Shown: one piece after another, positions 5,155-29,054 of the stretch
Position numbering within the stretch: position 1 is the first letter of the stretch
Layout: each line of letters opens with the position of its first letter
Source: Balanoglossus misakiensis
Taxonomy: Eukaryota; Animalia; Hemichordata
Assembly: GCA_040954595.2 (NCBI GenBank)
Contig: CM082585.2
Span: 5,853,808 to 5,917,807 of the forward strand
Length of the DNA stretch: 64,000 nt
Direction of reading: 5' to 3'
Notes under the pieces: generated by a model
Database searches by the model: none
Seen by the model: the letters and a program-made list of their open reading frames with translations, nothing else
What the model was told of the DNA's origin: nothing
Position numbers and translations under genes: made by a program

Positions 5155-8100
5155 TTGATCTAAATCAATTAGCGAAATTGTATATACTACTGCGTACACA
5201 TAGAGGGCGCGAATGTCTTTCAAACCCTACACAGCTAATTCATCTGAGCTGTCATTTGAAAGAAGCCCCCTTAGCACGCTGAAATTTTTCATTGACCCAA
5301 ATATTATCACTGTATATTATAATTAAGCACTTCATGTCTACCTTTACATGTTCTTTATACGTTTTAATAGTGCTCTTAGTTGGTACTTACAGTCAATCAC
5401 TCCAAAAATAATCGTTGCTCCTGAGAGAAATTTGAAATATTTTTATAATCAACGGGTATACTTTGTAAATCTCGTCCAATCATATCCATATAGTAGATTT
5501 GAAATGTGGGAAGAGCATTTTGAAATAACAAAATAAAACAAGGAAAGACAATGTTCACAATTTTGTTATAGTAAAAATCCTCGCTTTAATTTTTTACAAG
5601 GTCAATATAAAAATTTGATATTATGAGAAACTCTGTACTAAGTCAAATATTCCAGTTAGAAGCATAACACGTGGTATTTGGACAAACAGGCGGAGGTATC
5701 CCATTGTGTGCAATTTAACTCTGTAAACAACCAGTGTTATTTCCATATTTGTTCCATCTGGAACTAACCAGCACGATACCTCTTTTATCACCACGGAAAT
5801 GCCAGAATTTCTCGACATGTAAACCACGGTCAACCATGCGTAATTACAGTAACTTGTGGCGTTTTGTAAGGCCCAAGGGCCGCCGATACTCAAGAACTGT
5901 CGAGTAGCTAGTATTACGAAAGATGAAGAAATTTGAAGAAAATTACCAAAAGTCCTGACATATACTCGTGCTATTAATTGAAATCCGGTAATACATACAC
6001 TTGCTGTGGTTGGTGTGGAATGATACATGTGCTTTGGATCTATACATAAAATGTCACATCAAATAAGGTGATATAGCTGGTCCCATTAGTCGCGTCTGAC
6101 TATACTTTACAAAATAACTCGTCCAACAGAAGTCATATATAGTAGTCGCAAATAATTTCATTTTCTTCAACATCATGAAATGAAACATGGAAAGTTTGCG
6201 TTGCACGTCACGGTTCTCATAAAAATTATTCACGAATTAAACGAGTAAAATATAACATGTGGTTCCATTCAACCATGATCTGTAATGTGTAAAGGAAGAT
6301 ATACAAATATAATCTATCTTCATGTTGTCATGCTGAGGACTCTCCGTATCAGTGTTTGTTTCATTTGAGATAAATGACTTAAGCAAACTTCTAATTAATG
6401 TACCCTTGATTAATTTTCGATTAAAGTTGGGACACCCCAATGTTTTTTGCATTTATCATGATGTGAGTTCTGTACTCCAGTGTTTACTTGGTTTTGAAAA
6501 AATACGTCTCCAGCAGCTTTAGAATTAATGTACCTTAATGTACCTGTCATTATTTTTTCTAATAAATTTGGGACACGCTTTTCGTGTTAACATTGCATTC
6601 GTATCACTTTACCCGTCAACTGGTCTTGCCGGAGATTGTGCCAATACCTGCAGAAGATCCACTCCATCGTAAGTCAAAAAATTCTACTTCTTTTTATACT
6701 ACATGTAGATTTTGTTTGGACCATACTTTTCGAATTTCGTGCATATTGCATTGCGTGTGCTCAAGACACTTTACAATTTCTGTTCAACGCCTTGTAAAAT
6801 ATAATCCAACAATACATCATGCTATCGGCACTATAAACTAAACATAATGTAGTCAAATATATTGGCAAACTAATAACAAAGTTTCACTTGGGATTATAAC
6901 TAATTTTGCTGCGTCTGTCTACACGTGAGGTTGTTTGATACCAATACATGTACTATTCTATTTCCACTGCGATCGTTTTATTATACAACGATGCATATAC
7001 GTGCAAGCACCCTCTATTTAAATTAGGACGAACTCTCTACAGAATTATGAAGCCAAATTTGCGGGTTTTATTTTTCTGCAGGTATCTTGTACAATGGCGT
7101 TTAAGACAGTAACATGGATGACATTCGTACTGTTACTGGTGTTTCCCGACAGTGCGTTACTCACAGACGATAGTGTAGGAACCGATCACAAAGTTGGTCA
7201 GTATTAATCTTCGCGCATTTATACAGTCACCTGTCTTCGGACTACTTTCATTACATATGACACCCTGATGTGACACAGTCCCTCACATATGACGGCACAG
7301 GTCGCGCGCAGAGGTCATATTCTTCTGTTATTATTGGATGTGTTTCCTGAGGTTTCATGAAAATTCAAGTTTCGACTGTGGCGTTTTAATTTTCAGTACA
7401 GTGATGCAGCAGAGACAGTCCAGAGACGTTCGCTCATTGTTCCTATTTACACAACTTTAGTTATGCAAATTAGGGTCATGTTGGGTCAGGTCATCAGTAG
7501 ATTAGCTCAGGTCGGGAGATCGAATCGCCAACATTCGAAAACACTAGCGATAGCGAGAGATTTTCGTCAATGATGAAGTTTCAAAGTACACCGACAAGTA
7601 AATGTTTTGTTATTCTGATGATAGTTTGGGAGAATATAAACTTAGGCCTACGTGCCAAAATTTCGCCGATCTGCTCTAGCGTTCGTGGAGTTTGATGTTT
7701 ACAAACAAAACGTAGTCCCACTTGTTTACTCATTGGAATGATATGCCTTGAATATATTTTTCTCACCTAAAATTCATTTAATGACCACATGACTAGTTTG
7801 CATAGTTCCGCTCTGAAGTTAGTTTACAAAACTGATAACATATGGGATGTATATTTTTATACGGTACGCTTATATAGTTCCCCCGTATTTCGAACGATTG
7901 TGCCTGCAATGCGCATCGCGGACGAGTGGTTGTCGTGTGGCGACCGTTTGCAGCGCTAATTTAAAGTCAATAATGATTTACAAATGATGTTTGCATTTCA
8001 GAGCATCGGCCACCGGTGGATTGCTATGACATTTATCAGTGGAACAAAGAAGCCCCAAGTGGTGTATACACTGTGCAACCCACAGACGGTGGAACCCAAT

Positions 8101-8676
8101 TCGAAGTCTACTGTGATATGGAGACAGATAACGGAGGGTGGACGGTATGTAGGAATATTGTTTTGCAATGTTTGCACATACCAGTAGACCCTTCTCTCTA
8201 TGGTATATTTTTGGCATTGAAAATAAAACGTTCTTAAAGAAAAACTAAATTAAATCTGCATCTCGGGATTTGCATTCAACTAAGTATTAGTATGTAAAAC
8301 TAGTGCCAACTAACGCAATAATCTATTTCAGTCTGGTGGTGATGGCTTTCACGATATTACACCCATTCTTTTAATATTAAAGGTCTTTCAAAGAAGACAC
8401 GATGGCAGCTTAGATTTCTATCGTTACTGGAATGACTACAAGAATGGATTTGGGTTTCCATCTGCTGAGTTCTGGCTAGGAAATGATAAGCTCTACCGAT
8501 TAACAAATCGACGGACTTATGAACTCAGAATCGACATGGAAGACTTCGATGGCGAAACCAAATATGCAAAATATGATAAATTTGTCATTGGTGATGAATT
8601 CAGTAAATATAAGCTGACTGCTGGAGAATATAGTGGAGACGCAGGTACGTAGACAGTTGTCTCAGCATGCAAGCCA
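5155..8676 (+). repeat. Segmental duplication, copy 1: upstream region plus exons 1-3 of FReD-A, near-identical to 10262-13724
   Basis: Long collinear near-identity with small indels, e.g. TACTGCGTACACATAGAGGGCGCGAATGTC at about 5187 and 10288. The spurious ORFs 5621-6028 and 10727-11164 are also near-identical. Confidence 0.95.
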
Positions 8677-9111
8677 GCGTAGACTCGTTCCTAGTCCAAT
8701 GAGGGCGCTTAATACTCCACTGTTGGGAGCACGTGGGGAACAACTTGCAATGCATCATAATTACTGTTTACGTCATGGTATTTTTAACATGAGTATAATT
8801 AAGAAAAGCCGTAAGAAAACAATGGACATACTATTTTCATTTGTATATGTTTTTTTACAGGAGACAGTCTTGAATGGCACAGAGGCCAATATTTCACAAC
8901 CAGAGATAGTGACAATGACTTAGATACGGCAAACAACTGTGCCAAATTGTACACCGGGGCATGGTGGTACAAACATTGTCATAAATCCAATTTGAATGGT
9001 CAGTACCTTGGTGAGAAGGAAGAGTACGGTACGGGGATAGTTTGGAAAACGTGGAAAGAGTATTATTATTCTTTGAAGAGTACTGAGATGAAAATAAGAC
9101 CTGCTCAGTAA
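7094..9111 (+). CDS. Secreted fibrinogen C-terminal domain protein (FReD-A; ficolin/tachylectin-5/MFAP4-like, no collagen domain)
   Basis: Exons 7094-7196 (signal peptide [23 protein letters not shown]), 8002-8144 (PVDC...[13 protein letters not shown]), 8383-8644 ([24 protein letters not shown]...EFWLGND...GDAG), 8861-9111 (DSL...FTTRDSDND...NCA...GAWWY..CH.SNLNG...EMKIRPAQ*). Frame is intact across all junctions. A possible 5'UTR exon donor lies at 6669. Confidence 0.93.
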
Positions 9112-9216
9112 CGAATTAATTAGTCGAAAATGTCACAACTAGTATATTCAGAGGTAGAATGTGTTAATTTTGCTGTTTCTCAGAAGATATTAAGAAAAAT
9201 TAGCGATCAAGAGAAA

Positions 9217-10264
9217 GACATTAAATCGGTTTTCAGGTGAACTTTAATCTACTGACACTAGTTTGAGACTTTTCAAAACTTGAAGAGAATAAAACACAAT
9301 GAAAACATACTGGACAGCCTGTCATGTCATCATTTCAAATTGGGATAGCGGGAAGGTTGAAAATTCAACATCTTAAGACATCGAATAACCAAACGCAATT
9401 CTGTAAACGCATAACCGGGTATTGAGGCAGAAAACTGATTCACCAAGTTTCATTCGACTTCCAATGACAGAAATGGCTAACAATTCTGCCATCGGGCACT
9501 CGGTGAGAATATACATAAACCATAAATGGTGACCGAGGAAATATCAGTTGAATGCAAAGACGTTTCCTGAAAACAAGGCAGTACAACTTGTGACTTGGAA
9601 AAAAAAAACTTAAAAGAACACAGGAATCTGCGTGGAGATACAGATGCTTATACAAAAGAATACACATCAACTACAACTAGAAATGCACGTTGGGGGCTCC
9701 CTCTCTCTCTCACTCACACATACACAAGGATATACAACAGATTCATACATACATTCTGTCAAACACTGACATATTGCACAATGTATGGCTACTTATTATT
9801 CATAATGCATAAATTAAAAAAAGGGTAGATTGGTACTACGACCACGGTCTATGTAGCCATTCAATGAACTGCCTTTGCCGCGGAATAGAAAACAACCCTG
9901 TCCTCGTTGTCATGGAGATAAGGCTTGTGTTAATTCAGTGCTTGGTATGTACAATGGCTACTCGCACACTGCCCTTATACTAGTCCACACCAATCTACTT
10001 GTGTGTCTCTGATTTGGATACGATGAGTTGCACATCTGGTTACCTCTAAGTGACACACGCTGCTTGAGTAGAAGACGTCTAATAGAGACCGAGTTGTAGA
10101 AAAAGTGTCAGAGGTTGACAATATCACTAAAACTGCCAAATTCACAATCTGAATGCAACAGGGGTCTGCCCAGGTTGACTTGAGCATTTGCGACTCATTA
10201 ATATTAATGTTCATTAATATTCATGTACATTAATATTCATACTCATTGATATTCACGTCTGTTG
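9217..10264 (+). repeat. About 1 kb segment duplicated at 22400-23535
   Basis: Begins AGACATTAAATCGGTTTTCAGGTGAAC and ends GATATTCACGTCTGTTG in both places; collinear with small indels. Confidence 0.95.
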
Positions 10265-13200
10265 ACCTAAATCAATTAGCAAAATTGTACTGCGTACACA
10301 TAGAGGGCGCGAATGTCTTTCAAACCCTACACAGCTTCTTACCCAGCTTATTCTTCTAAACTGTCATTTGAAAGAAGCCCCCTTAGCACGCTGAAATTTT
10401 TCATTGACCCAAATATTATCACTGTATATTATAATTAAGCACTTCATGTCTACCTTTACATGTTCCTTATACGTTTTAATAGTGCTCTTAGTTGGTACTC
10501 ACAGTCAATCACTCCAAAAATAATCGTTGCTCATGAGAGAAATTTGAAATATTTTTCAACGGGTATACTTTGTAAATCTCGTCCAATCATATCCTTAGTA
10601 GATTTGAAATGTGGGAAGAGCATTTTGAAATAATAAAATAAAACAAGGGAAGACAGTGTTCACAATTTTGTTATGGTAAATATCCTCGCTTTAATTTTTT
10701 TACAAGGTCAACATGGAAATTTGATATTATGAGAGACTCTGTACTAAGTCAAATATTCCAGTTAGAAGCATAACAAGTGGTATTTGGGCAAACAGGCGGA
10801 GGTATCCCATTGTGTGCAATTTAACTCTGTAAACAACCAGTGTTATTTCCATATTTGTTCCATCTGGAACTAACCAGCACGATACCTCTTTTATCACCAC
10901 GGAAATGCCAGAATTTCTCGACATGTAAACCACGGTCAACCATGCGTAATTACAGTAACTTGTGGCGTTTTGTAAGGCCCAAGGGCCACCGATACTCAAG
11001 AATTGTCGAGTAGCTAGTATTACGAAAGATGAAGAAATTTGAAGAAAATTACCAAAAGTCCTGACATATACTCGTGCTATTAATTGAAATCCGGTAATAC
11101 ATACACTTGCTGTGGTTGGTGTGGAATGATACATGTGCTTTGCATCTATACTAAATTGTGTCACATCAAATAAGTTGATATAGCTGGTCCCATTAGTCGC
11201 GTCTGACTATACTTTAAAAAATAACTCGTCCAACAGAAGTCATATATAGTAGTCGCAAACAATTTCATTTTCTTCAACATCATGAAATGAAACATGGAAA
11301 GTTTGCGTTACACGTCACGGTTCTCATAAAATAATTATTCACATATTAAACGAAAAAAATTAACATATGGTTCCATTCAACCATGATCTGTAATGTGTAA
11401 AGGAAGAAAAACAAATATATTCTATCTCCATGTTGTCATGCTGAGGATTCTCCGTATCAGTGTTTGTTTCATTTGAGATAAATGACTTTAGCAAACTTCT
11501 AATTAATGTACCCTTGATTAATTTTCGATTAAAGTTGGGACACCCCAATGTTTTTTTGCATTGATCATGATGTGAGTTCTGTACTCCAGTGTTTACTTGG
11601 ATTTGAAAAATTACGTCTCCAGCAGCTTTAGAATTAATGTACCTGTCATTATTTTTTCTAATAAATTTGGGACACGCTTTTCGTGTTAACATTGCATTCG
11701 TATCACTTTACCCGACAACTGGTCTTGCCGGAGATTGTGCCAATACCTGCAGAAGATCCACTCCATCGTAAGTAAACAAATTCTACTTCTTTTTATACTA
11801 GATTTTGTTTGGACCCTACTTTTCGAATTTCGTGCATATTGCATTGCGTGTGCTCAAGACACTTTACAATTTCTGTTCAACGCCTTGAAAAATATAATCC
11901 AACAATACATCATGCTATCGGCACTATAAACCAACACAATGTAGTCAAATATATTGACAAACTAATAACAAAGTTTCACTCGGGTTTATAACAAATTTTG
12001 CTGCACCTGTCTTCGCGGGAGGTTGTTTGATACCAATACTATTCTGTTTCCACTGCGATCGTTTTATTATACAACGATGCATATACGTGCAAGCACCCTC
12101 TATTTAAATTAGGACGAACTCTCCACAGAATTATGAAGCCAAATTTGCGGGTTTTATTTTTCTGCAGGTATCTTGTACAATGGCGTTTAAGACAGTAACA
12201 TGGATGACATTCGTACTGTTACTGGTGTTTCCCGACAGTGCGTTACTCACAGACGATAGTGCAGGAACCGATCACAAAGTTGGTCAGTATTAATCTTCGC
12301 GCATTTATACAGTCACCTGTCTTCGGACTACTTTCATTACATATGACACAGTCCCTCACATATGACGGCAAAGGTCGCGCGGAGAGGTCATATTCTTCTG
12401 TTATTATTGGATGTGTTTCCTGAAGTTTCATGAAAATTCAAGTTTCGACCGTGGCGTTTTAATTTTCAGTACAGTGATGCAGCAGAGACAGTCCAGAGAC
12501 GTTCGCTCATTGTTCCTATTTACACAACTTTAGTTATGCAAATTAGGGTCATGTTGGGTCAGGTCATCAGTAGATTAGCTCAGGTCGGGAGATCGAATCG
12601 CCAACATTCGAAAACACTAGCGATAGCGAGAGATTTTCGTCAATGTTGAAGTTTCAAAGTACACCGACAAGTAAATGTTTTGTTATTCTGATGATAGTTT
12701 GGGAGAATAATAAACTTAGGCCTACGTGCCAAAATTTCGCCGATCTGCTCTAGCGTTCGTGGAGTTTGATGTTTACAAACAAAACGTAGTCCCACTTGTT
12801 TACTCATTGGAATGATATGCCTTGAATATATTTTTCTCACCTAAAATTTATTTAATAACCCATTGACTAGTTTGCATAGTTCCGCTCTGAAGTTAGCTTT
12901 ACAAAACTGATAACATATGGGATGTATATTTTTATATAGTTGGCTTATATAGTCCCCCTTTATTTCGAACGATTGTGCCTGCAATGCGCATCGCGGACGA
13001 GTGGTTGTCGTGTGGCGACCGTTTGCAGCGCTAATTTAAAGTCAATAATGATTTATAAATGATGTTTGCATTTCAGAGCATCGGCCACCAGTGGATTGCT
13101 ATGACATTTATCAGTGGAACAAAGAAGCCCCAAGTGGCGTATACACTGTGCAACCCACAGACGGTGGAACCCAATTCGAAGTCTACTGTGACATGGAGAC

Positions 13201-13724
13201 AGATAACGGAGGGTGGACGGTGTGTAGGAATATTATTTTGCAATGTTTGCACATAGACCCTTCCCTCTATGTTGTATGCTTGGCATTGAAAATAAAACGT
13301 TCTTAAAGAAAAACTAAATTAAATCTGCATCCCGGGATTAGTATATAAAACTAGTGCTAACTAACGCAATAATCTATTTCAGTCTGGTGGTGATGGCTTT
13401 CACGATATTACATCCATTCTTTTAATATTAAGGTCTTTCAAAGAAGACACGATGGCAGCTTAGATTTCTATCGTTACTGGAATGACTACAAGAATGGATT
13501 TGGGTTTCCATCTGCTGAGTTCTGGCTAGGAAATGATAACCTCTACCGACTAACAAATCGACGGACTTATGAACTCAGAATCGACATGGAAGACTTCGAT
13601 GGCGAAACCAAATATGCAAAATATGACAAATTTGTCATTGGTGATGAATTCAGTAAATATAAGCTGACTGCTGGAGAATATAGCGGAGACGCAGGTACGT
13701 AGACAGTTGTCTCAGCATGCAAGC
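10262..13724 (+). repeat. Segmental duplication, copy 2: upstream region plus exons 1-3 of FReD-B
   Basis: Near-identical to 5155-8676. Confidence 0.95.
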
Positions 13725-14461
13725 TTGACTAGAAAATATGTCGTACGAGGGCGCTCACTGCTTTCCCCAGCGTATACTCGTTCCCTTTCCAATGGGGAAG
13801 CCTTGCTATTCTCAGCTGTAGGGAGTGGTGTACATGTACATAATATGTGGAGAATTTGAATGTACTACAATCCCGGTAGTGTAGATAGCTGTTAATATTT
13901 GAGGTTGAAGAAGTAGTGAAACAAAAGGGAACAATTGGCAGTACAGCTTTAATACTATTATGTCGTGATATTTGGCGATTAGCCACGATATTTCTTTGAT
14001 GAACTAACTTTTTGCTAGAAGATGACATGTCTCTCTCTCTCTGACTGACTATGTCTTTCTGTCTCTTTCTTTCTCTCCCTCTCCCCCTCTCTCTCCCTCC
14101 CACTCCCTCCCTCTCTCCCTCCCACTCCCCCCTCTCTCTCCCTCCCACCCCCTCTTCCCCTCTCTCTCTCTCCCACCCCCTCTTCCCCTCTCTCACTCTC
14201 TCTTCTGCAGGAGATAGTCTTGAGTACCACAACAACCACTATTTCACAACCAGAGATCGGGACAATGACATAGATACGGAAAACAACTGTGCCAAATTGT
14301 ACACTGGGGCATGGTGGTACAGAAAGTGTCATATATCCAATTTGAATGGTCAGTACCTTGCTGAGAAGGAAGAGTACGGTACGGGGATAGTCTGGAGGGA
14401 ATGGAGAGGAGTATACTATTCTCTGAAGAGTACTGAGATGAAAATAAGACCTGCTCAGTAA
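12180..14461 (+). CDS. Secreted fibrinogen C-terminal domain protein (FReD-B)
   Basis: Exons 12180-12282, 13077-13219, 13433-13694, 14211-14461. Same exon sizes as FReD-A (103/143/262/251 nt), intact frame, canonical FReD motifs. Confidence 0.93.
14028..14205. repeat. Polypyrimidine (CT/CCCT) low-complexity tract in FReD-B intron 3
   Basis: Almost pure C/T run immediately before the exon 4 acceptor. Confidence 0.9.
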
Positions 14462-15629
14462 CGAATAAATTAGTCGAAAATGTCACAAATCGTATATTCA
14501 GATGTAGAATATGTTAATTTTACTGTATGTCGAAAGAAAGCACATATACAAATTATATATACATGTATAAGAAAAATTACCAAACAAGAGAAATGTCCTT
14601 CAAAATGTAGAAAAAAACTATTATATATGTGAAATAAAGTTAAGTAGCACAGGGATTCCTTTATTGCCATCGGTTTATTTCCAGACATGGATGCATGAAA
14701 GAGATCGAAACAATTTACTCGCATATCTCAGAAGTATTTAAGAGATATAGCATAATATTTTGATGTGCTATTAAGTGATTTATACAAGAATAACGTTTTA
14801 CTCCAGACTGATATTCACGCCCACCCTCACTGGCAGTGGTGATAGAAAGGTTTGGTGTTGTCCTAGCCAATCACATATCAGTGTCTACATGCATGCATTG
14901 TCGTCGTAATCATATTACTCCAGTAAGCATGGAAGGAAGATTCCGGGGGAGGGGTATTAGAAAGTGTATTAAAAATTTCAATTGCCAACTTATAGAGAAT
15001 GCGGCTCGCTCATATAAGAACACCGGAGACAAATGAAATGAACAACTCGAGTAGGCAGGCCCGTGGCAAACTTTTAACTCCTTTTCAAACCACGTGGTCC
15101 CATGAAAGCAAACATTCTGGCATGGTCTGCAGCTATTACCTAAGAACAAAGTGGAAAATAATGAACCGGAACACCTTCAATCCTCTTATTCGTCGGAGCG
15201 GATTATATTTAAACTATTCAATTACCTTAGGAAAGGATATATTTATTATACATACATTCTTCCCAACACATGGTTGTAATCTCAATTGATATGTTCTTTC
15301 TTAAAATAATGAATAGTGTTCCATCGGTTCCCACTAAGATAATTTCACCTGAACAAATGAACGTTTTATACCATTCTAAACTAAATCTGTGTTGCCTGGC
15401 TACGTTTTTCTGCCCAAAGTTATTTTTCCTGTGTTCAAAGTGGTATGACCGTCGGTGACAGACAAAAACATAATAGCCCTCAAAACTTTGAAAACAGAGA
15501 ATAAAACTAGATGCACTTGTTTGATATCGCGAGACTTGCCGACGTCGACCCAAGTCAGAGACGCTCCTCGAAAGTGTTGCACTGTGATAGAAAGGAAGGG
15601 GACGAAACTGAAGTTATTTCACCTCCGAG

Positions 15630-18600
15630 ATGAAAAGCAGTAAAGTAGCACCATTTAGGGATAAGGTAAGGGGAAATTACTTGAAACGTAGAATTGTAGC
15701 CGTTTACCATCTGGCTGTAATAACTGCATGATAAGAATGTTTGATATGTAGTTTTTCGCCATGGTAAACAAACAGCTGTCTTCGGATTTAGGACGACGTC
15801 GACATGATGGTAACTAGCTCCAAACTTGAGAAATTTCTTGTAACAATTGTGTAGTATTAATAAGGCAGTTTTCATCGTTCAGTCAAACAATTTCTGAAAG
15901 AATTGAATAGCTTACGTCAAGCTAATTCAGTCGGAGAAAAATAGTCATCACGAGTAATTTCAACCTTAAAGAGAATTTTGTTTGAAATGAAAAGCTTTTC
16001 ATGGTGTTTTACTGCTTGAAACATGCTAAAATACTTGTAAACTGTACTCAATCTCTACATCGTGTACAACGGACAAGAGTGAACATTCAGGGAATCAATT
16101 TATGGTCGCTACCCAGTTATTCAATGTTGAGACAACTTTTGTCTATATGTATACAGTGATGCATAATGTTTAGATTACACGGGGCTTGTAAGGAAATCTC
16201 CGAGTGTGGATTCCTTTCATGTTATAGCTGTCATGTTCATGTCTTGTTGCCACTGTTCAGGGAGACCTTGCTATTAACCAGAATGTTTATCAAATTAACT
16301 TGGAATGTGATGACTAATCGACGAATTGTTTACCGTGATGTACAATGTAATACCAAAGTGCCAAACATTTTGCTTTCAATTCTGTACATTGTAGCAGTTA
16401 GATTGTACGCCCATTTAAGAAAAGTCTTGCTAGAAAGTGTGTCATATGCGACCCATACCAACAGCCGCAGACTAGACGACGACCGCCTTTCAAACCAAGT
16501 GTTGCCGAGCGACACGCATAATCTCTCCCTCTCGCTCTCTTTTTTTTTTCTCTCTCTCTCTCTCTCTCTCCCCCTCTCTCTCTCTCCCTCCTTCTCTCCC
16601 TATTGTTATTGAAATGCTATTCCATGTGATTTATTATTCTACATGGTGTTTTGTATGGCTTCACTTTCGTGGTGGTGTTGCCATGGTGACCGTTACTGGG
16701 CTGCCTTGTATGATTGACACGGATGGAGGGGTTCCCCCATCCTCCCATTGGTGGGTTCTACACCAATCAGAAGTGCGTTCTGGGTCACGTGTTTAGCCCC
16801 AAGTTTCGGCTCTGTGCAACGTTTCCCGATTAGTCCGGTTTAATCCCTACCGGATAGCCAGCCCCGGGTCACCGATCGCGGGATCTAAGACGTGTTCGCC
16901 GTAGCAGTTCGGTGTGGGCCGATATCTTCGACGAGACGTTTGCTTTCCGGCGAGTTCCGACCGCCGTGTGTGGAGAGAGCTGGTCCGTCTGCGCTACCGG
17001 TTTTCAAAGGCGGGAACGTCCGGGCTTCCGTCACAATATATATATATTTGGTTTTCTTCACAGACCGATGTCAAGACGGGCCAGAAACGGCGGCGGAAGG
17101 TTATCATCGGGGTCTTACTCACCACAGGGCTGATACTCGCTGGTGGTGGTGCTGCGGTTGGGGTTTTTATTGGTATATATTCTTTTTTGTCCATCTCAAT
17201 CACGGTTTAATAGAGAACATCCATTTAATTTCTTCCATTTATCAAGTTTTCTTGCAGGCGGGTAAAAATTTATTGCTCTTCGAAATATCCAAACATCTTT
17301 AATCGCACGTTAACTTATAAATATACGTATATACTCATATTAACCTAGTTAGGCAATTTGAGTACATGCATATGTTGATTCCTTCTTAAGGTGAAATGTT
17401 CGGCCTTGGTGAAAAGGGACAGCCCGTTGGAAATCCTGAGACAACGCTCATGCCATTGCATACAACACAACCATCGGATCCAGGTAATTGATAACATAAT
17501 CTCCTTTTCTAATTAAACATACCAAAAGTATTACCATGGTCAAGACGATCAAAGTGTTTCAATAAATGTGCAGTACAAAATTTTACAATATTCTGTTGGA
17601 TTTTCAATTATTTGCGAGTTATAATTATATGTGTATAGTTGCTGTAAGTTGGCATCGATGGCAGATACGTGTGCGTATATAAATGGATTGGCTTCCATCT
17701 GCCCTTGGTCTTTTTGCTTCTTCTCAGTAGGCCAGTTTTAGCCACTGTTCCTTATCACACGATACTTGACATGTTAGTAACACCAATGGCTGCAATTTTG
17801 TAACAACAGCTATATAAACTACCCATCTCACGTTGACTTTGCTAACATTAATTATTAACCCTAAAATAGCCCAAAATGACGTGGTCAAATCTCTTTCTCT
17901 TTGAAGCATTGATCAGTGCGACTCCAACCCTCCGCGTCCACCCTGATTATATCCCGGACGTTGTGCAAGGTCGGCAGATTGACTTCCATTTGAACGTTGA
18001 ACTGCCGATTGTTTACGCCAGCCGAACAGTAGAGGGCACTGCAGCGGATTTGTTTTCAATCAACGCTTTCCTGGCTGTGTCTGACGTCAGCGGGGCTGGG
18101 GGTGACTTGGTTTCGTCGACAGCTTCCCAAGAGACTGCTCCCACGAATAGCTCTCTGGGTAATACAACAATGGCAACTGGGACTTCCAGTGGTGCAGACA
18201 AAACAACCGGCGTGCGTGTCAATACAACAGAAACGTCGGCGCTCGTAACACTGGGAGATGAGGGGGCAACGCAGACCCACAGGACAACAGCTGTTGTACC
18301 TGGACATGACGTCACACTTTCTAATCATATGGCTGTGCTGGTAGATGTTCAGGCCAACTTCGATCCTATACCGTGCAACCACTACAACTTCATTTGTGTT
18401 GAGATTTATCCAGTTGACACAGAAGTTTGGCAGTGGACAGGCGACGTGAAGAGAACTGCCTGTGTAAAGATAGGAGATTGTCTCTGTGAGTATATAAGTT
18501 CAATAATGATGATTAGGTCGTGGCTTTCTATCAAACATTAGATTGATGTCATGACATTTGTGGCGTTTTTGTACCGTATCAACACTTGCGTGACTCTATT

Positions 18601-21600
18601 TTACAGGTTAAGAAACACGTAAGCTATCAGTCAGAACATTTAATACTCATTACATGCAATGTACCGGCAAGAGAATCATGGATAACCCATTTCCAGGAAG
18701 TTTTCAATGCACGATGCCATGTTCATACATAATAGTTTTTCATCTTTTCTTCACAGACCCCATTGATCCAATTGCTATGCAAGTGTTTGCAGACATGAAC
18801 GTAACCATGGGAACATCACAGTTGTTATGTATTGGCGTTGAATTGTACCTCGGAAATGATACGGGAAACTACACAAGTATGGAGGATATCTTATTCGACG
18901 TTCAGCTCTACTTCTCCGCCAATGCAACAGGGCATCCACACTCGAAGAAAGTTTTAGCTGATCATATCTCGCCAACAATGGCCGTCATTCTTCCAAATTC
19001 CAACGTGAACATGGAAAACCTGATGGCAACCTACGACCTCCGTGATATGGGCTGTGCAACGTACCCGTATGTATGCGCCGATATTTCTCCTATGAAGGAC
19101 GCCCCCCTTTTGTGGCTCTACGATGACTGGTGTATCACAAACTGTGTTGGGGTGACGACTTGTACACGTGAGTTAGAATTAAAATCATGGTTTCTATCCG
19201 TAATCAGAGCTTCAGAGATGCAACTATTTCCGGGTAATTTTTCTCGTGCGTTTCCTTGTAGATACACAACTCGACACATGTAGCATTCTGCAGTGCATTT
19301 GTAGCAGATGCACATGTTTAAATTGATTGTCTATGGAACATGAAGCTGGCAGATATACGTTTACTGGATCATCAGATTTACGTCTAGCTTTCTTATTCCC
19401 TTCAGATCAAATCGACGAACTATTTCTCGATGTGAGTGTTAGTTCCAACAGCAATGTTGACCTCGTCATGGGTTCATCGAAACGCTTTTCCCTCGACGTT
19501 AGCATAGCGATTGGACCGGACACAGCACGGTTCTCCAGTGAAATTAACCATGTATTCGGCATGAATTTGAACCTGAAGACTACCGAGGAAGACCCAGCTC
19601 TTGTGACTTCTCCACCAACCAACGTCACTTCCGGTACCTTGTCTATCTCACCGAACATATCAATATCCATGTATAACGTTACTTTCATGGAAACAGATCT
19701 AGACTTGGTTGATATCGGATGTCACGACGTCAAGTTTATCTGCGTTGATGTATTCCCTGGTGGTAACTCCGGGTTTCCATGGAAATGGTCCGGAGGCGAA
19801 ATTCTTTCCGGTTGTCTGGCAGTGAACGGAACCTGTATCGGTAGGCTTAAAGAGATTCTTGCACTTTTTGCACATTTTTGTCTTTGTTTAATGGAAAATT
19901 TGAATTTTGGAATATGGAAGCTTTGAGTGATCGCAGTTGTTCTCCTGGTGGAATTTCTCTGTGTTAACTCCTATATTCCTTTCATCTAGTTCAAGTGGCC
20001 CCGGACACTCAGAGCCCATTGCAAGTTAGCGGAACGAGAGGGGGAGGGGAGAGAGAGAGAGGGGGGAGGGAGGGAGAGAGAGGAAGAGAGGGAGGGGGAG
20101 AGAGAGAGAGAAGCTGGTCAGTATTAATCTTCGTGCATTTATATACGGGGTCTTGTGGTCGAGGTTATGTTGCGTAGCGCCCGCCATTACCGTAAGCCGA
20201 GACCCGGGTCAGAACACATATTTTGTCATAAGCTTCTACCTCACGGAATAACAAATACTTGAGTTCTTATAAGTTTCGGAGCTAAAGATAAATGTGCATT
20301 GACATGTACGATTTCAATAAAGAGCGAAAGTGAAACTTTTCTATGGGATTCATAACATTATTCCTGCCGGGACATGCGCTACATACAGCTGTTAACGTTC
20401 TCTCAATTGCAATATGCCATGTCAAGATCTTTTTTTAGAATACTCAAACTCTTCCCTTGTTAATTCTGCCCCGGCCCTTGTCGAGTCACATAGCTGGATT
20501 CACGACCCTGTGTAACGCTGTCCAGAAAAAGCCCTACCGTCTATCGAATATTACGTTGTCGACGTTATCGATTCGCTTTATCTAAACGTCAATAATGATT
20601 TATAAATGATTTTTGCATTTCAGACCATCGGCAACCAGTGGATTGCTATGACATCTATCAGTGGAACCAAGGAACCCCAAGTGGCGTATACACTGTGCAA
20701 CCCATGGACGGTGGAACCCAATTCGATGTCTACTGTGATATGGAGACAGATAACGGAGGGTGGACGGTGTGTGGGAATATTATTTTGCAATGTTTGCACA
20801 TAGACCCTTCTCTCTATGTTGTATGCTTGGCATTGAATGTAAAACGTTCTGGAAGAAAAATTGTGAATTAAATCTGAATTCAACTAAATATGTCAAGCTA
20901 GTACGACGTGAGTAACGCAATAATCTATTTTTTGCCCCACCCCTTCTTTTAATATTAAAAGGTCTTTCAAAGAAGACGTGATGGCAGCTTAGATTTTTAC
21001 CTTTACTGGAACGACTACAAGAATGGCTTTGGGTTTCCTGCTGCCGAGTTCTGGCTAGGAAATGATAATCTGCATCGATTGACATATCAACGGAATTATG
21101 AACTCAGAATCGACATGGAAGACTTCGATGGCGAAACCAAATATGCGAGATATGATAAATTTGTCATTGGTGATGAATTCAGTAAATATAAGCTGACTCT
21201 TGGAGAATATAGCGGAGACGCAGGTACGTAGACAGTTGTCTGAGCATGCAAGCCATTAGCCACGATATTTCTTTGATGAGTTAACTTTTTGCTAGAAGAT
21301 GATTGAAAAAGAAATATAATTCAGAGCCACTGAACAGGATTTCTCTCTCTCTCTCCCTCCCACTCCCTCTTCCCCCTGTCTCTCTTCTGCAGGAGATAGT
21401 CTCACGTACCATAACGACCAGTATTTTTCAACCAGAGATCGGGACAATGAAGAGCATGAATCAGACCACTGTGCCCAAAAATACACCGGGGCATGGTGGT
21501 ACAATCATTGTCATCTATCCAATTTGAATGGTCAGTACCTTGGTGGAGAGACGGTAGAGTTCGCTACGGGGATCAATTGGCAATCGTGGAGAGGGCATTA

Positions 21601-21643
21601 CTACTCTTTGAAGAGTACCGAGATGAAAATAAGACCGGCTTAG
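15630..21643 (+). CDS. Type II transmembrane protein: short cytoplasmic tail, TM, stalk, three repeats of an unnamed Cys-containing domain, and a C-terminal fibrinogen domain (FReD-C; FIBCD1-like topology)
   Basis: Exons 15630-15665 ([12 protein letters not shown], strong AAG/GTAAGG donor), 17064-17172 (KRRRK then [27 protein letters not shown]), 17391-17483, 17907-18485, 18757-19167, 19406-19840 (last four all phase 1-1), then FReD exons 20624-20766, 20962-21223, 21393-21643. The frame is open throughout. The first exon and the 19840-20624 junction are inferred from phase compatibility. Confidence 0.82.
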
Positions 21644-22399
21644 TAACGAATTGAATTAGTCGAAAATGTCACAAATCATATATTCAGAGGTAGTAGACTA
21701 TATTAATTTTACTGTTTGTCGAAAGAAAGCACATATTAATTCAGAAATTATCTATACATGTATTATGAAAAATTACCAATCAGGAGAAATGTAGAAAAAA
21801 CTACTATATATGTGAAATAAAGTAAAGCTAAAGCAATGCAAATAGCATAACGATTTCCTTTTTTACCACGAGTTTATTTCCAGACCTGGACGCGTGAAAG
21901 AGAAACAATTTACTCGCATATCTCAGAAGTATTTATGAGACATAAAATATATGTTTGTGTGCGTGATTGCTTGATATTTTGACTTCGAGATTGATTATAT
22001 GGCGGTTGTGACATGTGGAGCAGGGTGCGCTTACTATTTACGAAATACTTGACAACACTTCCTGGTCTTTTAAGCTGAAAGTCCATACTTTCTTGACGGA
22101 CTTGACTTTTCATGACCCTACATCCTTGTACTTCCGTTAGTAAGAATCCATCAGACCTCTATAATTGCAGCTGTAGTCAATAAATTATGCACTAAATTAC
22201 ATAATTGACTCTTTTCAAGCAACATTTCCCACATTTCCTTCCTGGAATGTTGAATCTTGACATTCCCATACGAACTGAAGCACACAATGTACAAGGATGT
22301 AAGGTCAAACAGGGGTCACGAATGCGACCTATTGGAAGCTTCCCTGCCACTCATAAAGTAAACACACACAAACCTACTGAGGATGAATTCTTACAGACA

Positions 22400-23535
22400 G
22401 ACATTAAATCGGTTTTCAGGTGAACTTTAATCTACTGACACTAGTTTGAGACTTTTCAAAACTTGAAGAGAATAAAACACAATGAAAACATACTGGACAG
22501 CCTGTCATGTCATCATGTCAAATTGGGATACTAGGGAGGTTGAAAATTCAACAAAGCCTTGCGTATTCTTGTTGAACTTCACGAAAAAAATGAAAATCTA
22601 TAAAAATCAGAACAAAGTTCGTTTTCTGTTCATCTTAAGACGTCGAATAGCCAAACGCAATTCTGTAAACGCATAACCGGGTATTGAGGCAGAAAACTGA
22701 TTCACCAAGTTTCATTCGACTTCCAATGACAGAAATGGCTAACAATTCTGCCGTCGGGCACTCGGTGAGAATATACATAAACCATAAATGGTGACTGAGG
22801 AAATATCAGTTGAATGCAAAGACTTTTCCTGAAAACAAGGCAGTACAATTTGTGACTTGGAACAAAAAACCTTAACAGAACACAGGAATCTGCGTGGAGA
22901 TACAGACGCTTATACAAAAGAATACACATCAACTACAACTAGAAATGCACGTTGGGGGCTCCCTCTCTCTCTCACTCACACATACACAAGGATATACAAC
23001 AGATTCATACATAAATTCTGTCAAACACTGACATATTGCACGATGTATGGCTACTTATTATTCATAATGCATAAATTAAAAAAAAAAAAGGTAGATTGGT
23101 ACAACGGTCTATGTAGCCATTCAATGAACTGCCTTTGCCGCGGAATAGAAAACAACCCAGTCCTTGTTGTCATGGAGATAAGGCTTTGTTAATTCAGTGC
23201 TTGGTATGTACAATGGCTACTCGCACACTGCCCTTATACCACACCAATCCACACCAATCTACTGCCGTGTCTCTGATTTGGATAAGATGAGTTGCACATC
23301 TGGTGACCTCTAAGTGACCTACGCTGCTTGAGTAGAAGACGTCTAATAGAGACCGAGTTGTAGAAAAAGTGTACTGTGTCAGAGGTTGACGATATCACTA
23401 AAACAGCCAAATTCACAATCTGAATGCAACAGGGGTCTGCCCAGGTTGACTTGAGCACTTGCGACTCATTAATATTAATGTTCATTAATATTCATGAACA
23501 TTAATATTCATGCACATTGATATTCACGTCTGTTG
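22400..23535 (+). repeat. Counterpart of the 9217-10264 duplicated segment, between FReD-C and the 3' end of the Mtl-like gene
   Basis: Collinear near-identity with 9217-10264. Confidence 0.95.
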
Positions 23536-23999: not shown

Positions 24000-26998
24000 T
24001 TACAAGAAATTACACCGCTTTCGTCGCTTTCTCCTCGGAACCGGCATCAAAACAACACGAGCTGCTTCTTCAAATATCTGCCAAAAAAAGGTAGAGAGAA
24101 ATACCGTAAGAATTGAAGCTTTGCTGTTTCTCATGAATATTAATGTGTGTGATTTGCATACTGACAAGAAATTCTGTGGCATGTACTTTATATGCCATTT
24201 GACAGACACACTGGGGCAACTTTTACCCCTCTCCCCACAATGGTTTGGTCCAAATCCATTGTCTTCTATGGTTACGTTAGACCTCTAAGGAGGGAAGCAG
24301 GTTAAAGGGACAAAGTCTCTCTCTTGCTGCCCCTTTTCCATTGATTATATTTGATATTTATGTTATTGTATATGTGGATATATAGTGAATCAACGTTCGA
24401 CAACACACAACTTCCATCCCACTTGTAGACACGAGAGTGAAAAAATCGCCAAAATGAATAATCGGTGTTTACCATTTACTCATTCTGGCGAGATTTTTAC
24501 TTCTACTTCCTACAAACGGGATGGAAGTTGTGTGTGGTCGAACGTTGATTCAATATATATCCACATGTAGAATAATATAAATGGTGTTATGTATGAAACA
24601 TAATCAACGAAAAAAAACGGCAGCGAGAGAGACTTTGTCCCTTTAAGGATGTACGCGCAGAACATAAACCGGAAACAGTGCACGCCCGGTCTTTTTCCCC
24701 ATAGGATTACATTGAAAATTGCTAGAAAACAAATTTCTACTATTGTCATTTTCACAAAATTTTACACATAGCTCAGTCCAGCAAATATAAATTCATTGGT
24801 CAAATAAAATATAGGGGTCACGGCGCTCTATTTTGAGATAAATTGCGTCAAAAATTTTGCCCATAGACAAACCATTGGTGAAAAATGCTGAGTCAGCAGT
24901 TTTCTTCTATTATCGACTAAATTCAAGGCTCTGTATTTCAAAAACAAGCGCGGTGACCCCTATATTTTATTACGGATTTTCATTATACATACAAAGGAGA
25001 ATAAAAAAATCCACAATTAAAAAAAATGACAATACTTTCAATTTTACTGAACGTACATCCTTAATATGTATGAGAAATATCACCTCCATACAATGCTCAC
25101 CTGTTTCAATCCTTTTTGAGTCAGTGCCGAACATTCCATATACTTCACTGCATTGACTTTAGAAGCCATCTTCTCGCCAGCTTCTTTCTTCAGAGGCGAT
25201 TTCCCCTGTTCCGCTAATTTACGAATCACTTCTTTGTCTTCGCGCAAATCAATCTTAGTTCCTAGATAACAAGTAGCGGATTCATTATTACAAAAATCAT
25301 CAACAAAATTTTTTTTTCCAAGGGGGTAAAATACTGCAATAAAGTGTAATGCTGCCACTTTTGAACAACACAGTTTTTGAACAACCCTGTCATATCTATA
25401 CAAACAAACCTGCATGATCAACATTTCGAACACCCTTGGCTTTGAACTTTCACTATTTTACAATGCCAAAATATCTGCCCTCAAACACAAATGTGACTTG
25501 ATTGTGTATCAGGGCATTCAGGATTTAGCATCACCCTGAAGACAGTGGTTCACAATCTGATTCATTGACATCAAAACTTCCTATTGACTACCCAGGGCCA
25601 TCTCCTAGGGAAGATGGTAAACGTGGTATAAACTCACCAACTAAGATATACGGTACATCGGGGGAATGATGCGTGAGTTCAGGGTACCATTTTGCCGTAA
25701 TATTTTCGTATGAAGTCTGACTAACGACACTAAAGCAAATTAAAAACACATCAGTCTGAAATGAGAAAATGTAAAAGGGTTATTTCAGTACAGCGGTGTA
25801 GATACAATGATGTCATCCTAGACTGGACACTGTGCATGTAATATTTGGTCCCGGAACAGATGGAACTTTCCAAATGACATCATAGGTCACCAGGGGTCAG
25901 GATGAAAACGTTAAAGTAAATTGATGAACTCGTCGCTAGGGGGCGCCCTCGACAAAGAACACCATGACCCACATCCTGCCTGACCATTGGTCCCAAAAAC
26001 ATGGCTGTCTCATCTTTAGAATGAATGGTTTTGTTGTTCCTATCTACGTAAGGCTTAATAAGTCATTTCTGCTGACTAGACACCATGCTATCTTACCTGT
26101 GGATACGACAAAGGTCGTAGTCTGTCGTAGTCTTCTTGACCCGCGGTATCCCATAATCCTAAGCTGACTGGAATTCCATCTACTACCATGCCAGCATTAT
26201 AGTTATCAAAGCTAAAAAAAACATAAATATTGAAGAAAAGTCTGATGAAAAATCGTGAAAGAAAACAAGTGTATACCATTCATACCAAACACAGAAACGG
26301 AAAACAAAACACTTGATTTTTTTGTAATCTCCTGTTTTAAGTAAGACTGGTATCATATTCGTTCTAACGATAATACTAAAATGAGCCATTATATATTAAA
26401 TTCAATTCCTGTTTCTAAGGACATAAACCCCACTAAAGGTCAGATAGTCAGTCTTTTAAATGTATGGTTTGTGGTGTTTCCATATTGCCACTGGTAAGAT
26501 ACATAATTTGGTAGTACAGCCACATGTAACATGTGTTGCAACCTCATGTCAATTTCTTTGTCAATTCCAAAACAGCTTGAAGTTTCTTTATGTCAGGGTG
26601 TTAAAATAAACGCATGTTGTGATATTGTGACATTTACATAACCATACTAAACTGTCCAACTGAATTCTTTTTATCTGATCTAAATTATATTCATAGGTTA
26701 ATTCCGATTTCTATAAAGTACATTACTATAAATCATGATTTATTTTAAGATTCATATTGCAATTGCTGACCTGCCCCCAGGTTGCCACTGTCAACAACGT
26801 GCCCAATCCATAATTAATTTAAGGTAACATTACCTAATTTTTAGATAATATTAGCTAACCCCAGAGTAATTTTGCTACTTACACAGTTGGTATGTACTCG
26901 CCGGGAAATGCATTACTGGTGTAGGATATCAACATGCATGTTTTACCAACCGCTCCATCCCCTACAACAACACATTTTATAGGTCTTGCTCCGGACAT
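24000..26998 (-). CDS. Rho-family small GTPase, Rac/MIG-2-like (Mtl-like)
   Basis: Exons (minus) 26998-26883, 26211-26097, 25755-25638, 25261-25101, 24077-24000: [43 protein letters not shown]...[24 protein letters not shown]...GTKIDLR...ECSALTQ...polybasic RRKRRKR plus CAAX CNFL. The RPIKC/KTCML signature resembles Drosophila Mtl and C. elegans MIG-2. Confidence 0.95.
24222..24305. mobile_element. Degenerate copy of an about 90-bp TTAA/CCCTTT-ended MITE-like repeat (reverse orientation)
   Basis: CCACAATGGTTTGGTCCAAATCCATTGTCTTCTATGG is the reverse complement of the core at 34602-34696, 46973-47065 and 51042-51128. Confidence 0.65.
24306..24642. mobile_element. Non-autonomous DNA transposon with TTAA TSD (Kolobok-like)
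   Basis: TIRs AGGGACAAAGTCTCTCTCTTGCTGCC ... GGCAGCGAGAGAGACTTTGTCCCT, flanked by TTAA on both sides. The superfamily call is inferred from TTAA TSD plus purine termini. Confidence 0.85.
24647..25060. mobile_element. Second non-autonomous element with TTAA TSD (Kolobok-like)
   Basis: TTAA-GGATGTACG ... CGTACATCC-TTAA, with an internal inverted repeat AAAATATAGGGGTCAC (about 24806) / GTGACCCCTATATTTT (about 24953). Confidence 0.8.
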
Positions 26999-29054
26999 CG
27001 TTGTTGATGCCTGAAAAAAATTGTACATGTAAATACGTGACGTTAGACACAAGACGTCCGACTAGTCCTGTTCTACTAAAAAGAACCACAGCAACGATGA
27101 TCTGAGACGCCGTAGCCAGTAGTGGTGAAAGTAAACAATTTGGCTGAGGTGATAGAGATCAAGTCGTTCTCTGTTTTAAATTCAATTGTTCAGAGATCGC
27201 ATCCTGTGACGGCTGGCCGGCCATGGCTCGGCCTTGTAACTAGTATTGTAATCACTGAATGAGTCAGTCTATATATTTCGAATGACTCGCTGAATTGTGA
27301 GAATTCTCGGGATGATCATCATGTCGTTCTGGTTTTCTCCAGATCTTAACTCAGCCCCGATTTCATCGCCTACACTGCCGAGAAAACAACGCCGTCGAAC
27401 TGACAAAAACAAAGGGTCACTAAATATCGTCTTAAAACCAGTAATTAGATATTCTGTCGCATTACAAACACACACAAGTGTCACATTCGGAATGTTGTCG
27501 ATCGCACGGATCGCGCGAGTTGATTCTATCGTAATGACGGTTCTCGTGTGCTTCGATTGATTGTGAAACCTTTGAACTCGCGCGAAACCCACAATTAAAC
27601 AAACGTACCTTAGCACTTCTGCCGAAATGTCCAGAAGCCGAATCGGCGTACTAATCGCTGACCAGGAAGTAGTATTATAAATGTCTGTCACAAGCATTTA
27701 TAAATAGCAACCAATCAGGGCAAGGCTTCGGAAGTACCGATGAGGGCGCCATCTCATCGACTCAAGGCTATGCAGGGACATACAGTAATTCCAAGACGTA
27801 CAACTTCTCCTGGTATTTAAAAACAAATCATGTTGAAGCATAGACACTGTCTATGGTTGGAATATAATTCTAAGATCGGTAACTTCTTCACACACTCCTC
27901 TTCAAGACGCGTGTGGTTAGGGCTAAAGTTGAATGAGTCTGATATTTATCGTTCCAAGTTTTTGTAAAAGTGTCATCCCTAAAACATGGTGCGAATCTCA
28001 GCATCAATTCATAGGTTAGACTGGGCTTAAGAGAAAATGATTTCCTTGCGTAATTTATGTTGATTAATCTTCTTAATTAGCCTAAGTTAATTACATGTAT
28101 TCAAATAATTCAATTAAGGAAACTATCTGTTCACTTTTGAAGAGACTGTTTTGTTCACTGGGGTCTAAAATGAGTAATGTAAAGTTGTATGTCTATTTGA
28201 CATGTCGTTTGCATAGTTTGATACCTGGTGCATCATGCAACCGATTGAAATTCTTTTTCGGCCTCTGTTTTCTATTGTCAGCCCTACTTTTGCAGAAGAT
28301 TGTTCCCCTCCACATCGTCTGTCAACCCCCCCCCCCCGAATCTTCCATACCCCCCAGAAATCAAATGGTTCCTCCCTCGCCTCCTGAACGGTGCGCGTGC
28401 GCTTGACAGTCGAGTACGCGTTGACTTTGACTGAGATGCTAAATCTTTCCGTAGAAATCGCCACCATATGTTTGCTTGGCGACTTCGTCAGAAGCCACAA
28501 GTTCAAGTACCTCAACCCAACTTGTGCATACATTCATCGATGCACAGCCTCCCCGCAAAAGCGAGTCTAAAACCAGCAGGACTTGAAATCTACATGTAAC
28601 ACTGTAAACAAACAAGCTCTCTTCCGGTTTCAAGGCAATGTGGGATATGCCGATTTGCTGGTTGGAGAGTACGTGACGGAAGGGGATATTTAGCCGAGAA
28701 CTGGGAAAACCGAGACGGGAAAAACACTGCCTTCATCCGGCTGCACCAAAATGCTTGCACTAAAACCGGGCAACGAACATCTACCACAGTTCCATTACAA
28801 CCAGATGTGCAGACAGCAGGTTTGACAGGAAGTCGTTTTTGTGTGTGTCATCAACAGGGCTGTCGATTTCAAGTTTTTGTGTAGACATTTGCCCCGTCGC
28901 CTCAGAACGGATCACTTTCTAAATGGTCTGGATTTAATATCTTGAACCAGCTGTACGTGAATCGTGTTATGAACGGTGCGTCAACGGAGCAGTAAGTGTT
29001 GATGGGTCGATCGATGACCACTCCATAAAACCTCAGGTCACACGTATCGCCACG

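Follow-up and report, generated by a model that had tools for sequence, protein, structure and literature searches.

How did a predicted membrane anchor, three cysteine-bearing modules and a fibrinogen-related domain (FReD) come to share one open frame, and is that frame made as one protein? These questions are raised by positions 15630..21643 of a 64,000-nucleotide (nt) stretch of the hemichordate Balanoglossus misakiensis (contig CM082585.2; the whole stretch is called the window below). The initial annotation had proposed an exon-shuffled, type II transmembrane (TM) receptor with soluble counterparts. We regard a history of gene fusion at this locus as well supported and highly probable, and we give about an even chance to a fuller reading, namely that a probably recent fusion joined the front of a membrane gene with repeats of the sea urchin fibrillar (SURF) type to a secreted FReD gene and left a 127-nt stop-bearing exon at the joint, such that the full receptor would arise only when this exon is skipped. 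The SURF and FReD parts are known, and their combination was not found: none of the 120 FReD matches listed (the best of 869) carries a SURF module (best E 0.89) and none of the 58 proteins of the SURF set carries a FReD, each being a partial sample. The remark in the initial annotation that a TM–Ig-like–FReD combination was unrecognized thus holds in both sets.

The predicted gene has nine exons, all with GT-AG borders, which join to 2319 nt encoding 772 amino acids (aa) with zero internal stops (P numbers here and below are our labels for retrieved proteins):

15630..15665, + strand: coding exon 1, the cytosolic tail (12 codons), with a phase 0 donor; its M-x3-KV-x-P start is also found in P. 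flava P0063 and P0009.
17064..17172, + strand: exon 2, KRRRK and the predicted type II membrane anchor, phase 0-1, from hydropathy and the P0063 alignment.
17391..17483, + strand: exon 3, a Pro/Thr-rich linker of 31 codons (93 nt), phase 1-1; the P0009 linker is of similar length, with a weak sequence match.
17907..18485, + strand: SURF-type module 1 (M1) with a Ser/Thr-rich insert, phase 1-1, 193 codons; the weakest match to the collagen-repeat profile.
18757..19167, + strand: SURF-type module 2 (M2), phase 1-1, 137 codons; groups with module 1 of P. flava P0062/P0046 (97).
19406..19840, + strand: SURF-type module 3 (M3), a predicted all-beta sandwich, phase 1-1, 145 codons; groups with the matching P. 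flava modules (99).
20624..20766, + strand: FReD copy 3, exon A, phase 1-0, PF00147.
20962..21223, + strand: FReD copy 3, exon B, phase 0-1, PF00147.
21393..21643, + strand: FReD copy 3, exon C, which encodes the calcium site and the acetyl pocket and contains the stop, PF00147; AATAAA at 21816.

By hydropathy, the 772-aa frame has a single hydrophobic segment, which follows KRRRK; it looks uncleaved and is preceded by a 24-residue basic tail. The predicted features of the FIBCD1-type topology, a short cytosolic tail and one N-terminal membrane helix behind a basic cluster, are therefore present, and the type II topology first suggested from the KRRRK-TM exon is supported by the homology of its N-terminus to those of P. 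flava proteins. The 11 N-glycosylation sequons are all located in the stalk, where the Ser/Thr-rich insert of M1 spans about 55 residues; the initial annotation mentions neither this insert nor exon 3. Of the claim that the three phase 1-1 modules are related, the phases and the M2-M3 and M1-M3 homologies (E 2e-10 and 8e-9 in pairwise BLASTP) stand, whereas M1 and M2 were not detectably related in the same pairwise comparison (E 28). The shared C-terminal cysteine signature is as previously written, with cysteines at 156/163/185/191 of M1 and 105/112/136/143 of M3; M2 carries these four and two extra.

The 5' parent can be recognized in P. flava, which has at least three genes combining SURF modules, a C-type lectin (CTL) domain and LDLa repeats (3 proteins among 2907 candidates). 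M2-M3 are 42% identical to P. flava XP_070579359 (P0062) over 286 aa and 40% identical to XP_070568995 (P0046) over 229 aa, and in both proteins the matched pair is followed by one further module, a C-type lectin and LDLa repeats. A quick tree built from 52 modules (the 3 of the window and 49 from 11 chosen proteins) groups M2 and M3 with their P. flava counterparts at 97 and 99, but not M1. The first 49 residues of the frame align with P0063 and P0009 at a score beating 5000 of 5000 full shuffles, with segment-wise shuffles reaching it 18 and 29 times in 5000, respectively; the alignment with the N-terminus of a Saccoglossus protein of the same plan is not significant (853 of 5000 shuffles reach the score). 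Two of the P. flava SURF-CTL-LDLa models have a basic cluster and anchor like those of the window, and the third (XP_070579359) starts after this region. Known members of this TM-SURF-CTL(-LDLa) group are P. flava XP_070568995, XP_070569079, XP_070573078 and XP_070579359 and Saccoglossus XP_077867454. The window protein resembles them in its tail, its anchor, the order of M2-M3 (40-42% identity) and the placement of a lectin after the stalk, but its M1 has no counterpart there, and it has a FReD in place of their last module, CTL and LDLa; a tblastn search (E<1) of the 64-kb window found no match to a CTL or LDLa. Judging from these alignments, the 5' half is derived from a hemichordate family of type II membrane proteins with SURF modules, a C-type lectin and LDLa repeats.

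The 3' parent lies next door, in two secreted FReD genes:

7094..9111, + strand: secreted FReD paralog, copy 1, a leader exon and three FReD exons, 252 aa.
12180..14461, + strand: secreted FReD paralog, copy 2, 252 aa.

Both encode a 34-residue leader followed by the FReD, and no leader exon of its own was found for copy 3. All three FReD exons of copy 3 exceed the Pfam cut-off for PF00147, the disulfide pairs Cys562/592 and Cys716/729 are present, and 173 and 176 of 218 residues are identical to those of the two neighbors, in agreement with the close paralogy noted before. A search with exon B matched 869 proteins among 1086 candidates, and our FReD comparisons rest on the best 120 of these. 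The closest among the matches listed are three short P. flava FReDs, 82-85% identical over exon B (the next is at 69%), two of which carry a leader as long as that of copies 1 and 2; the three are encoded on a chromosome-scale contig of 39.8 Mb, and the P. flava SURF-CTL genes on others, of 63.0 and 41.5 Mb. When the 3 window copies are placed in a tree with 17 of the 120 listed matches, copy 3 joins copies 1 and 2 (98/96) and this trio joins the P. flava trio (94/90, below the star threshold of the tool). Since copy 3 groups with copies 1 and 2, the secreted state would, by parsimony, be ancestral for it; on this tree, the 3' half is a third copy of the adjoining secreted FReD genes that has lost its secretion signal.

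The cluster also bears marks of other exchanges. Copies 1 and 2 (8002-9111 versus 13077-14461) are 98% identical in exons A and B and intron 1, 89% in exon C and 76% in the preceding intron, a pattern that suggests gene conversion halting before the ligand-binding exon. The distal 3' flank of copy 3 is 94-96% identical to that of copy 1 (9212-10264 versus 22395-23535), and its proximal 3' end aligns further with that of copy 2 (14462-14768 versus 21654-21962); as the alignments read, this flank is a mosaic from unequal exchange. Copies 1 and 2 each have an acceptor-like site a few bases upstream of the ATG (7070-7093 and 12156-12179), and an upstream noncoding first exon may exist.

Between the two halves, the proposed intron 19841-20623 holds, unmentioned in the initial annotation, an intact acceptor (19989/19990) and an intact donor (20116/20117) flanking a 127-nt exon, in which remnants of both parents meet:

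19990..20036, + strand: relic start of the next SURF exon of the donor gene, its acceptor intact; 19992-20036 encodes [15 protein letters not shown]; identified from the next-module starts of homologues.
20036..20113, + strand: a purine-only GA tract of 78 nt at the fusion point.
20111..20143, + strand: relic of the exon 1/intron 1 border of a secreted FReD gene, its donor intact (GT at 20117); identical at 31 of 33 nt to 7191-7223 and 12277-12309.

Scored against the starts of next modules, the acceptor at 19990 ranks first among the 6933 AG positions of the window, with 37.7; the runner-up that does not overlap it has 21.0. In the homologues, the module after the counterpart of M3 begins with VQV, and the relic codons, which match these proteins at 8-9 of 16 positions, do so at a level not below that of the intact modules. 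The core 18-mer of the relic border occurs three times in the window, against 0.10 expected. A dispersed repeat was considered as the source of the 33-nt relic and is unsupported, its occurrences in the window being confined to the three FReD loci; metagenome contigs, where few animal contigs are expected, gave no exact match. The rest of the junction intron matches the paralogs only in its last 44 nt, and the intron between exons A and B aligns at 87%. For an immune gene cluster of a sea urchin, GA tracts have been reported at putative deletion sites (PMC5103432, in excerpt). Separately, CT-rich tracts occur at 14040-14200, 16535-16601 and 21340-21390, that is, in the FReD cluster and in the first intron of the membrane gene, and the GA tract at the junction resembles their reverse complement.

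Given the relic SURF start, the relic border of the leader exon and the lack of CTL and LDLa in the window, we propose that the donor gene was interrupted, by a deletion or rearrangement, 16 codons past the start of its next SURF exon, these codons being all that remains of its final module at the locus, and the lectin gene at the end of its leader exon. The earlier inference of exon shuffling is supported in this form. The undecayed relic codons fit a young event.

What the joint does to the transcript is the next question. The relic acceptor has 14 pyrimidines at -20..-4, compared with 9-15 at the 14 modeled acceptors, and the relic donor, GTCAGT, is identical to those of copies 1 and 2; judged by eye and by pyrimidine count, both relic sites look as strong as the used ones. 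If the 127-nt exon is included at its assembled length, 42 residues are added and a stop (TG+A) is formed before the FReD, for a product of 596 aa, whereas skipping it yields 772 aa; the receptor therefore needs either skipping or another tract length. The stop in the included form lies two introns upstream of the normal end, and a transcript of this kind is a likely target of nonsense-mediated decay. The clean 19840-20624 splice of the initial annotation is thus weakened: its sites are canonical and in frame, but a nearer intact acceptor, with an intact donor, flanks the stop-bearing exon. In the fusion reading that we prefer, the near acceptor would often be used, with a lectin-less 596-residue protein or nonsense-mediated decay as the outcome. 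The skipped form would resemble FIBCD1, with a short cytosolic tail, one membrane helix and a glycosylated stalk of three predicted SURF beta-sandwiches replacing the coiled coil. At the cell surface, its FReD would oligomerize and bind glycans with the help of calcium, whereas the products of copies 1 and 2 would act in solution.

The same splice sites can be read otherwise. The original model has splicing routinely pass over the junction exon and takes the 772-residue TM-SURF3-FReD receptor as the product under selection. This model accounts for the open frame with its canonical sites and for the undecayed state of copy 3; further, neither half could be expressed whole alone (the window has no CTL/LDLa end and copy 3 no leader exon), and the homologues, too, have a terminal lectin behind their modules. 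Had skipping been under selection for long, however, the intact acceptor 149 nt past the donor and the intact relic donor should have eroded; purine-rich exons, such as this one, tend toward inclusion; and no such protein was seen among the 120 listed FReD matches or the 58 SURF-set proteins. We consider this model rather unlikely.

Another possibility is that splicing retains the junction exon, which would measure 126 or 129 nt, and so be in frame, either in the true sequence or in common alleles; the receptor would then have 814-815 residues with a Gly/Glu/Arg linker, and the length of the GA tract would act as an on/off switch for the lectin. A length change of -1, +2 or -4 nt suffices to bring the exon in frame, the purine-only tract cannot hold a stop, and both splice sites are preserved along with the 16 relic codons, in contrast to the mid-intron, which no longer aligns with intron 1 of the paralogs. 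Against this, the assembled length is 127 nt, and a frameshifted allele or an error must be assumed; moreover, intron turnover is also fast elsewhere in the cluster, which makes the kept ends weak evidence. It seems to us quite improbable, as does a related version that goes further, in which a surface lectin receptor is being born by a swap of the lectin head on a SURF stalk, a deuterostome parallel of the snail FREPs, CREPs and GREPs, with the GA microsatellite as a phase switch: one repeat unit more would put the FReD in frame, and display would differ among individuals or cells.

Finally, the locus might consist of two broken genes, the SURF gene ending in a terminal exon from 19990 and copy 3 being a promoterless, newly dead FReD. 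Read-through from 19990 indeed reaches a stop (TAG at 20175) after 62 more residues, one AATAAA lies in the junction intron at 20316, and copy 3 has Glu at a conserved calcium-binding Asp. On the other hand, AATAAA motifs are frequent in DNA of 39% GC, the relic donor at 20116 shares its intronic hexamer with a donor in use, and copy 3 shows no further sign of decay; we hold this to be very improbable. Over all routes, we judge the prospect that a meaningful amount of full receptor is made to be a little short of even. If it is made, other parts have been assembled independently into a FIBCD1-like receptor, and the origin of a chimeric gene can be followed nucleotide by nucleotide, the splice sites of both parents being kept at the joint.

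Several observations weigh against the fusion reading that we prefer. The dN/dS ratio of copy 3 versus its paralogs, 0.33-0.35, a figure that includes time preceding the fusion, fits a working receptor as well as it fits a young fusion. In a conservation profile using 108 of the 120 listed homologues, whose figures also cover the time before the fusion, copy 3 scores equal to its paralogs; it shows 4 departures at 91 conserved columns, the same as each paralog, and 11 derived changes, compared with 8 on the paralogs' stem. On the side of receptor function, the second calcium Asp is Glu in copy 3 (residue 709), in a column that is 95% Asp in the 108 homologues, and the cytosolic tail contains no tyrosine or dileucine motif, so that FIBCD1-like endocytosis is not evident. 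The length of the GA tract may reflect an assembly error or one allele, and both the splicing outcome and the age of the fusion are points that we infer. In a neutral simulation without indels, the frame stayed open in 390 of 2000 runs at 2% divergence and in 30 of 2000 at 5%; as an open frame is this rare at 5%, an old fusion would have to be functional, and from the predicted frame the fused gene is either young or selected.

The predicted ligand pockets bear on what the three FReDs might bind. By alignment, with FIBCD1 numbering from PMC3908420 (in excerpt), the calcium ligands (FIBCD1 Asp393/Asp395) are Asp and Asp in copies 1 and 2 and Asp and Glu in copy 3, and for the S1 pocket (Tyr405, His415, Tyr431, Trp443) copy 1 has Y,H,Y,Y, copy 2 Y,H,Y,V and copy 3 Y,H,F,H. 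The FIBCD1 set is thus not fully matched in copy 3; the third position is Phe in L-ficolin as well. Between copies 1 and 2 there is a single residue difference in exons A-B, with a dN of 0.12 in the ligand-binding exon C versus 0.003. Different ligand specificities are therefore likely among the three FReDs, and of the earlier suggestion of soluble counterparts with different specificity, it is the predicted difference in pockets that finds support. An alternative function, independent of splicing, is that of a matrix or adhesion receptor, in which the SURF modules would bind collagen-associated SURF proteins and the FReD would act like those of MFAP4 or tenascin. SURF modules are described in collagen N-propeptides and fibrosurfin (PMC10817530, in excerpt), the relatives include collagens, perlecan-like proteins and receptor phosphatase architectures, and MFAP4 nearly matches the score of FIBCD1 against the last exon. 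We find this function unlikely: the source of the FReD is a tandem array of genes for a leader plus a FReD, and these differ mainly in the ligand-binding exon, the usual pattern for recognition lectins.

The identity of the repeat itself can be narrowed down. The initial annotation knew of no named family for it, a claim that our results contradict: it is homologous to collagen repeats described as SURF modules, and a match to a described family, which that annotation had named as evidence against its proposal, was found for the repeat half. SURF modules are four-cysteine modules lying between the VWC domain of sea urchin collagens and their minor triple helix (PMC2852846, in excerpt). A three-module profile run against 1.84 billion representatives gave 34 matches at E<=0.001, and 25 of these comprise 9 hemichordate, 12 echinoderm, 1 amphioxus, 2 unnamed and 1 bacterial protein; the bacterial match (P0017) was rejected as false after an iterated profile failed to recover it. 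In 30 of the 34, the domains that Pfam finds next to the repeats are VWC, collagen, CTL, LDLa, SUEL, fn3 and phosphatase, never PF00147, and in neither these 30 nor the window modules does any Pfam family exceed its cut-off on the repeat. A Pfam match of M3 to VERL (E 0.051, under cut-off) was rejected.

The link to collagens comes from Acanthaster XP_022088426 (P0014), itself retrieved with the profile of the window modules, which has a VWC domain at 72-123 (25.8 bits, below the Pfam cut-off of 27.6), seven four-cysteine repeats at 136-1142, collagen from 1174 and a COLFI domain. Conversely, a profile of its seven repeats alone scores 22.3 bits on M2, 16.7 on M3 and 8.1 on M1, values reached by 0 of 1000 shuffles each, M1 passing narrowly (best shuffle 7.5 bits). 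The four-cysteine pattern recurs in 254 of 279 family matches of at least 100 aa, isoforms included. On this profile evidence, the window repeat is homologous to the SURF-type repeats of collagens, the name being taken from the architecture of the starfish collagen, not from named sea urchin sequences. Other searches added little: a word-index search with M3 alone found no match among 331 candidates, a weak blank since 42%-identical relatives exist; an atlas search gave no usable match for M3 and, for a sea urchin two-module stretch, only CARDB leads (0.82-0.84); and a sequence search of the PDB with the three-module profile gave a single match at E 0.5.

With an alignment of 46 rows, M3 is predicted to fold into nine strands (pLDDT 85.6, pTM 0.81), compared with a pLDDT of 33.6 from the single sequence. 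Its best structural match is a beta-sandwich of transglutaminase 3 (Z 7.5, root-mean-square deviation 4.0, 115 aligned residues), and other Ig-like sandwiches score equally; no match at E<=0.001 came from Foldseek and none at Z>=8 among 48,161 chains from VIA-align, which points to no specific structural relative and does not imply a new fold. The match of the model reflects the common arrangement of Ig-like sandwiches, and M3 is predicted to be Ig-like in this broad sense, in line with the earlier Ig-like reading.

Related proteins show how widely such modules are used. P0018, P0019, P0022, P0023 and P0058 are echinoderm proteins of about 320 aa with a signal peptide, two SURF modules and a C-terminal hydrophobic tail, probably a glycosylphosphatidylinositol (GPI)-type anchor, and P0006 and P0007 are hemichordate eight-module versions of them. 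SURF arrays also occur in receptor tyrosine phosphatases of hemichordates, in a crinoid protein with 31 modules and in a divergent protein of amphioxus (P0013, P0033, P0008, P0031). Whatever the splicing at the window locus, SURF is hence extended from echinoderm connective tissue to a mobile domain of hemichordate, echinoderm and amphioxus proteins, carried by collagens, lectins, receptor phosphatases and GPI-type surface proteins, and the analysis supplies a confident predicted fold for it; a Pfam model together with a structure would make it easier to test the function of SURF in mutable collagenous tissue.

Other genes noted in the window are as follows:

2715-4133, + strand: a long single open frame matching galactose-3-O-sulfotransferase, PF06990.
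25080-25457 and 34597-34887, both - strand: two similar small-GTPase exons, with PF00071 for the second.
28938-30887, + strand: a sulfotransferase-like gene between the small-GTPase exons, presumably a heparan sulfate 6-O-sulfotransferase.
40709-49041, + strand: COG6 exons, PF20653.
53411-61000, - strand: an acidic chromatin-factor-like gene, tentatively RSF1; no Pfam match in the two exons tested.

Among known systems, the SURF modules of echinoderm 2-alpha/5-alpha N-propeptides and fibrosurfin share with those of the window a tandem arrangement of four-cysteine modules of about 130-145 residues. Unlike them, the window modules sit in a hemichordate type II membrane protein, their subfamily is marked by W or F and by a longer loop ahead of the second strand motif, M1 has an insert and M2 has six cysteines. 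The full texts searched (main texts, excluding most subscription papers and the original SURF papers) describe no SURF outside echinoderms, no SURF structure and no SURF-FReD protein. The sea urchin Sp185/333 cluster is likewise a tandem gene array with GA tracts at rearrangement sites (PMC5103432, in excerpt); however, the proteins are unrelated, and the window locus has a single junction tract that shows no pattern.

Vertebrate FIBCD1 shares the short tail, the single N-terminal anchor and the C-terminal FReD, and the equivalents of its Tyr405, Cys414-His415 and Asp393 are kept in copy 3. FIBCD1 is a tetramer that binds chitin and mediates endocytosis. Its stalk is a polycationic coiled coil, whereas that of the window protein consists of three SURF-type modules, predicted beta-sandwiches of which M3 is predicted to be all beta, and in copy 3 Tyr431 is replaced by Phe, Trp443 by His and Asp395 by Glu. 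Because the nearest relatives of the FReD are short hemichordate FReDs, the FIBCD1-like design is likely to be convergent.

The snail FREPs are secreted and join one or two IgSF domains with a cysteine loop of more than 40 aa to their lectin (PMC7588048, in excerpt). In the window modules, by contrast, no Pfam Ig family was found, and the cysteines of the SURF signature all lie within the last 40 residues, the four spanning fewer than 40 at the module end; in place of a secretion signal, the protein has a predicted membrane anchor homologous to those of P. flava membrane proteins. The wider snail VIgL family (FREPs, CREPs and GREPs) reuses an Ig-like stalk under different lectin heads (PMC5433772, in excerpt), and in this the SURF proteins are alike, with varied heads that include a CTL (P0009), a SUEL (P0025) and, at the window locus, a FReD.

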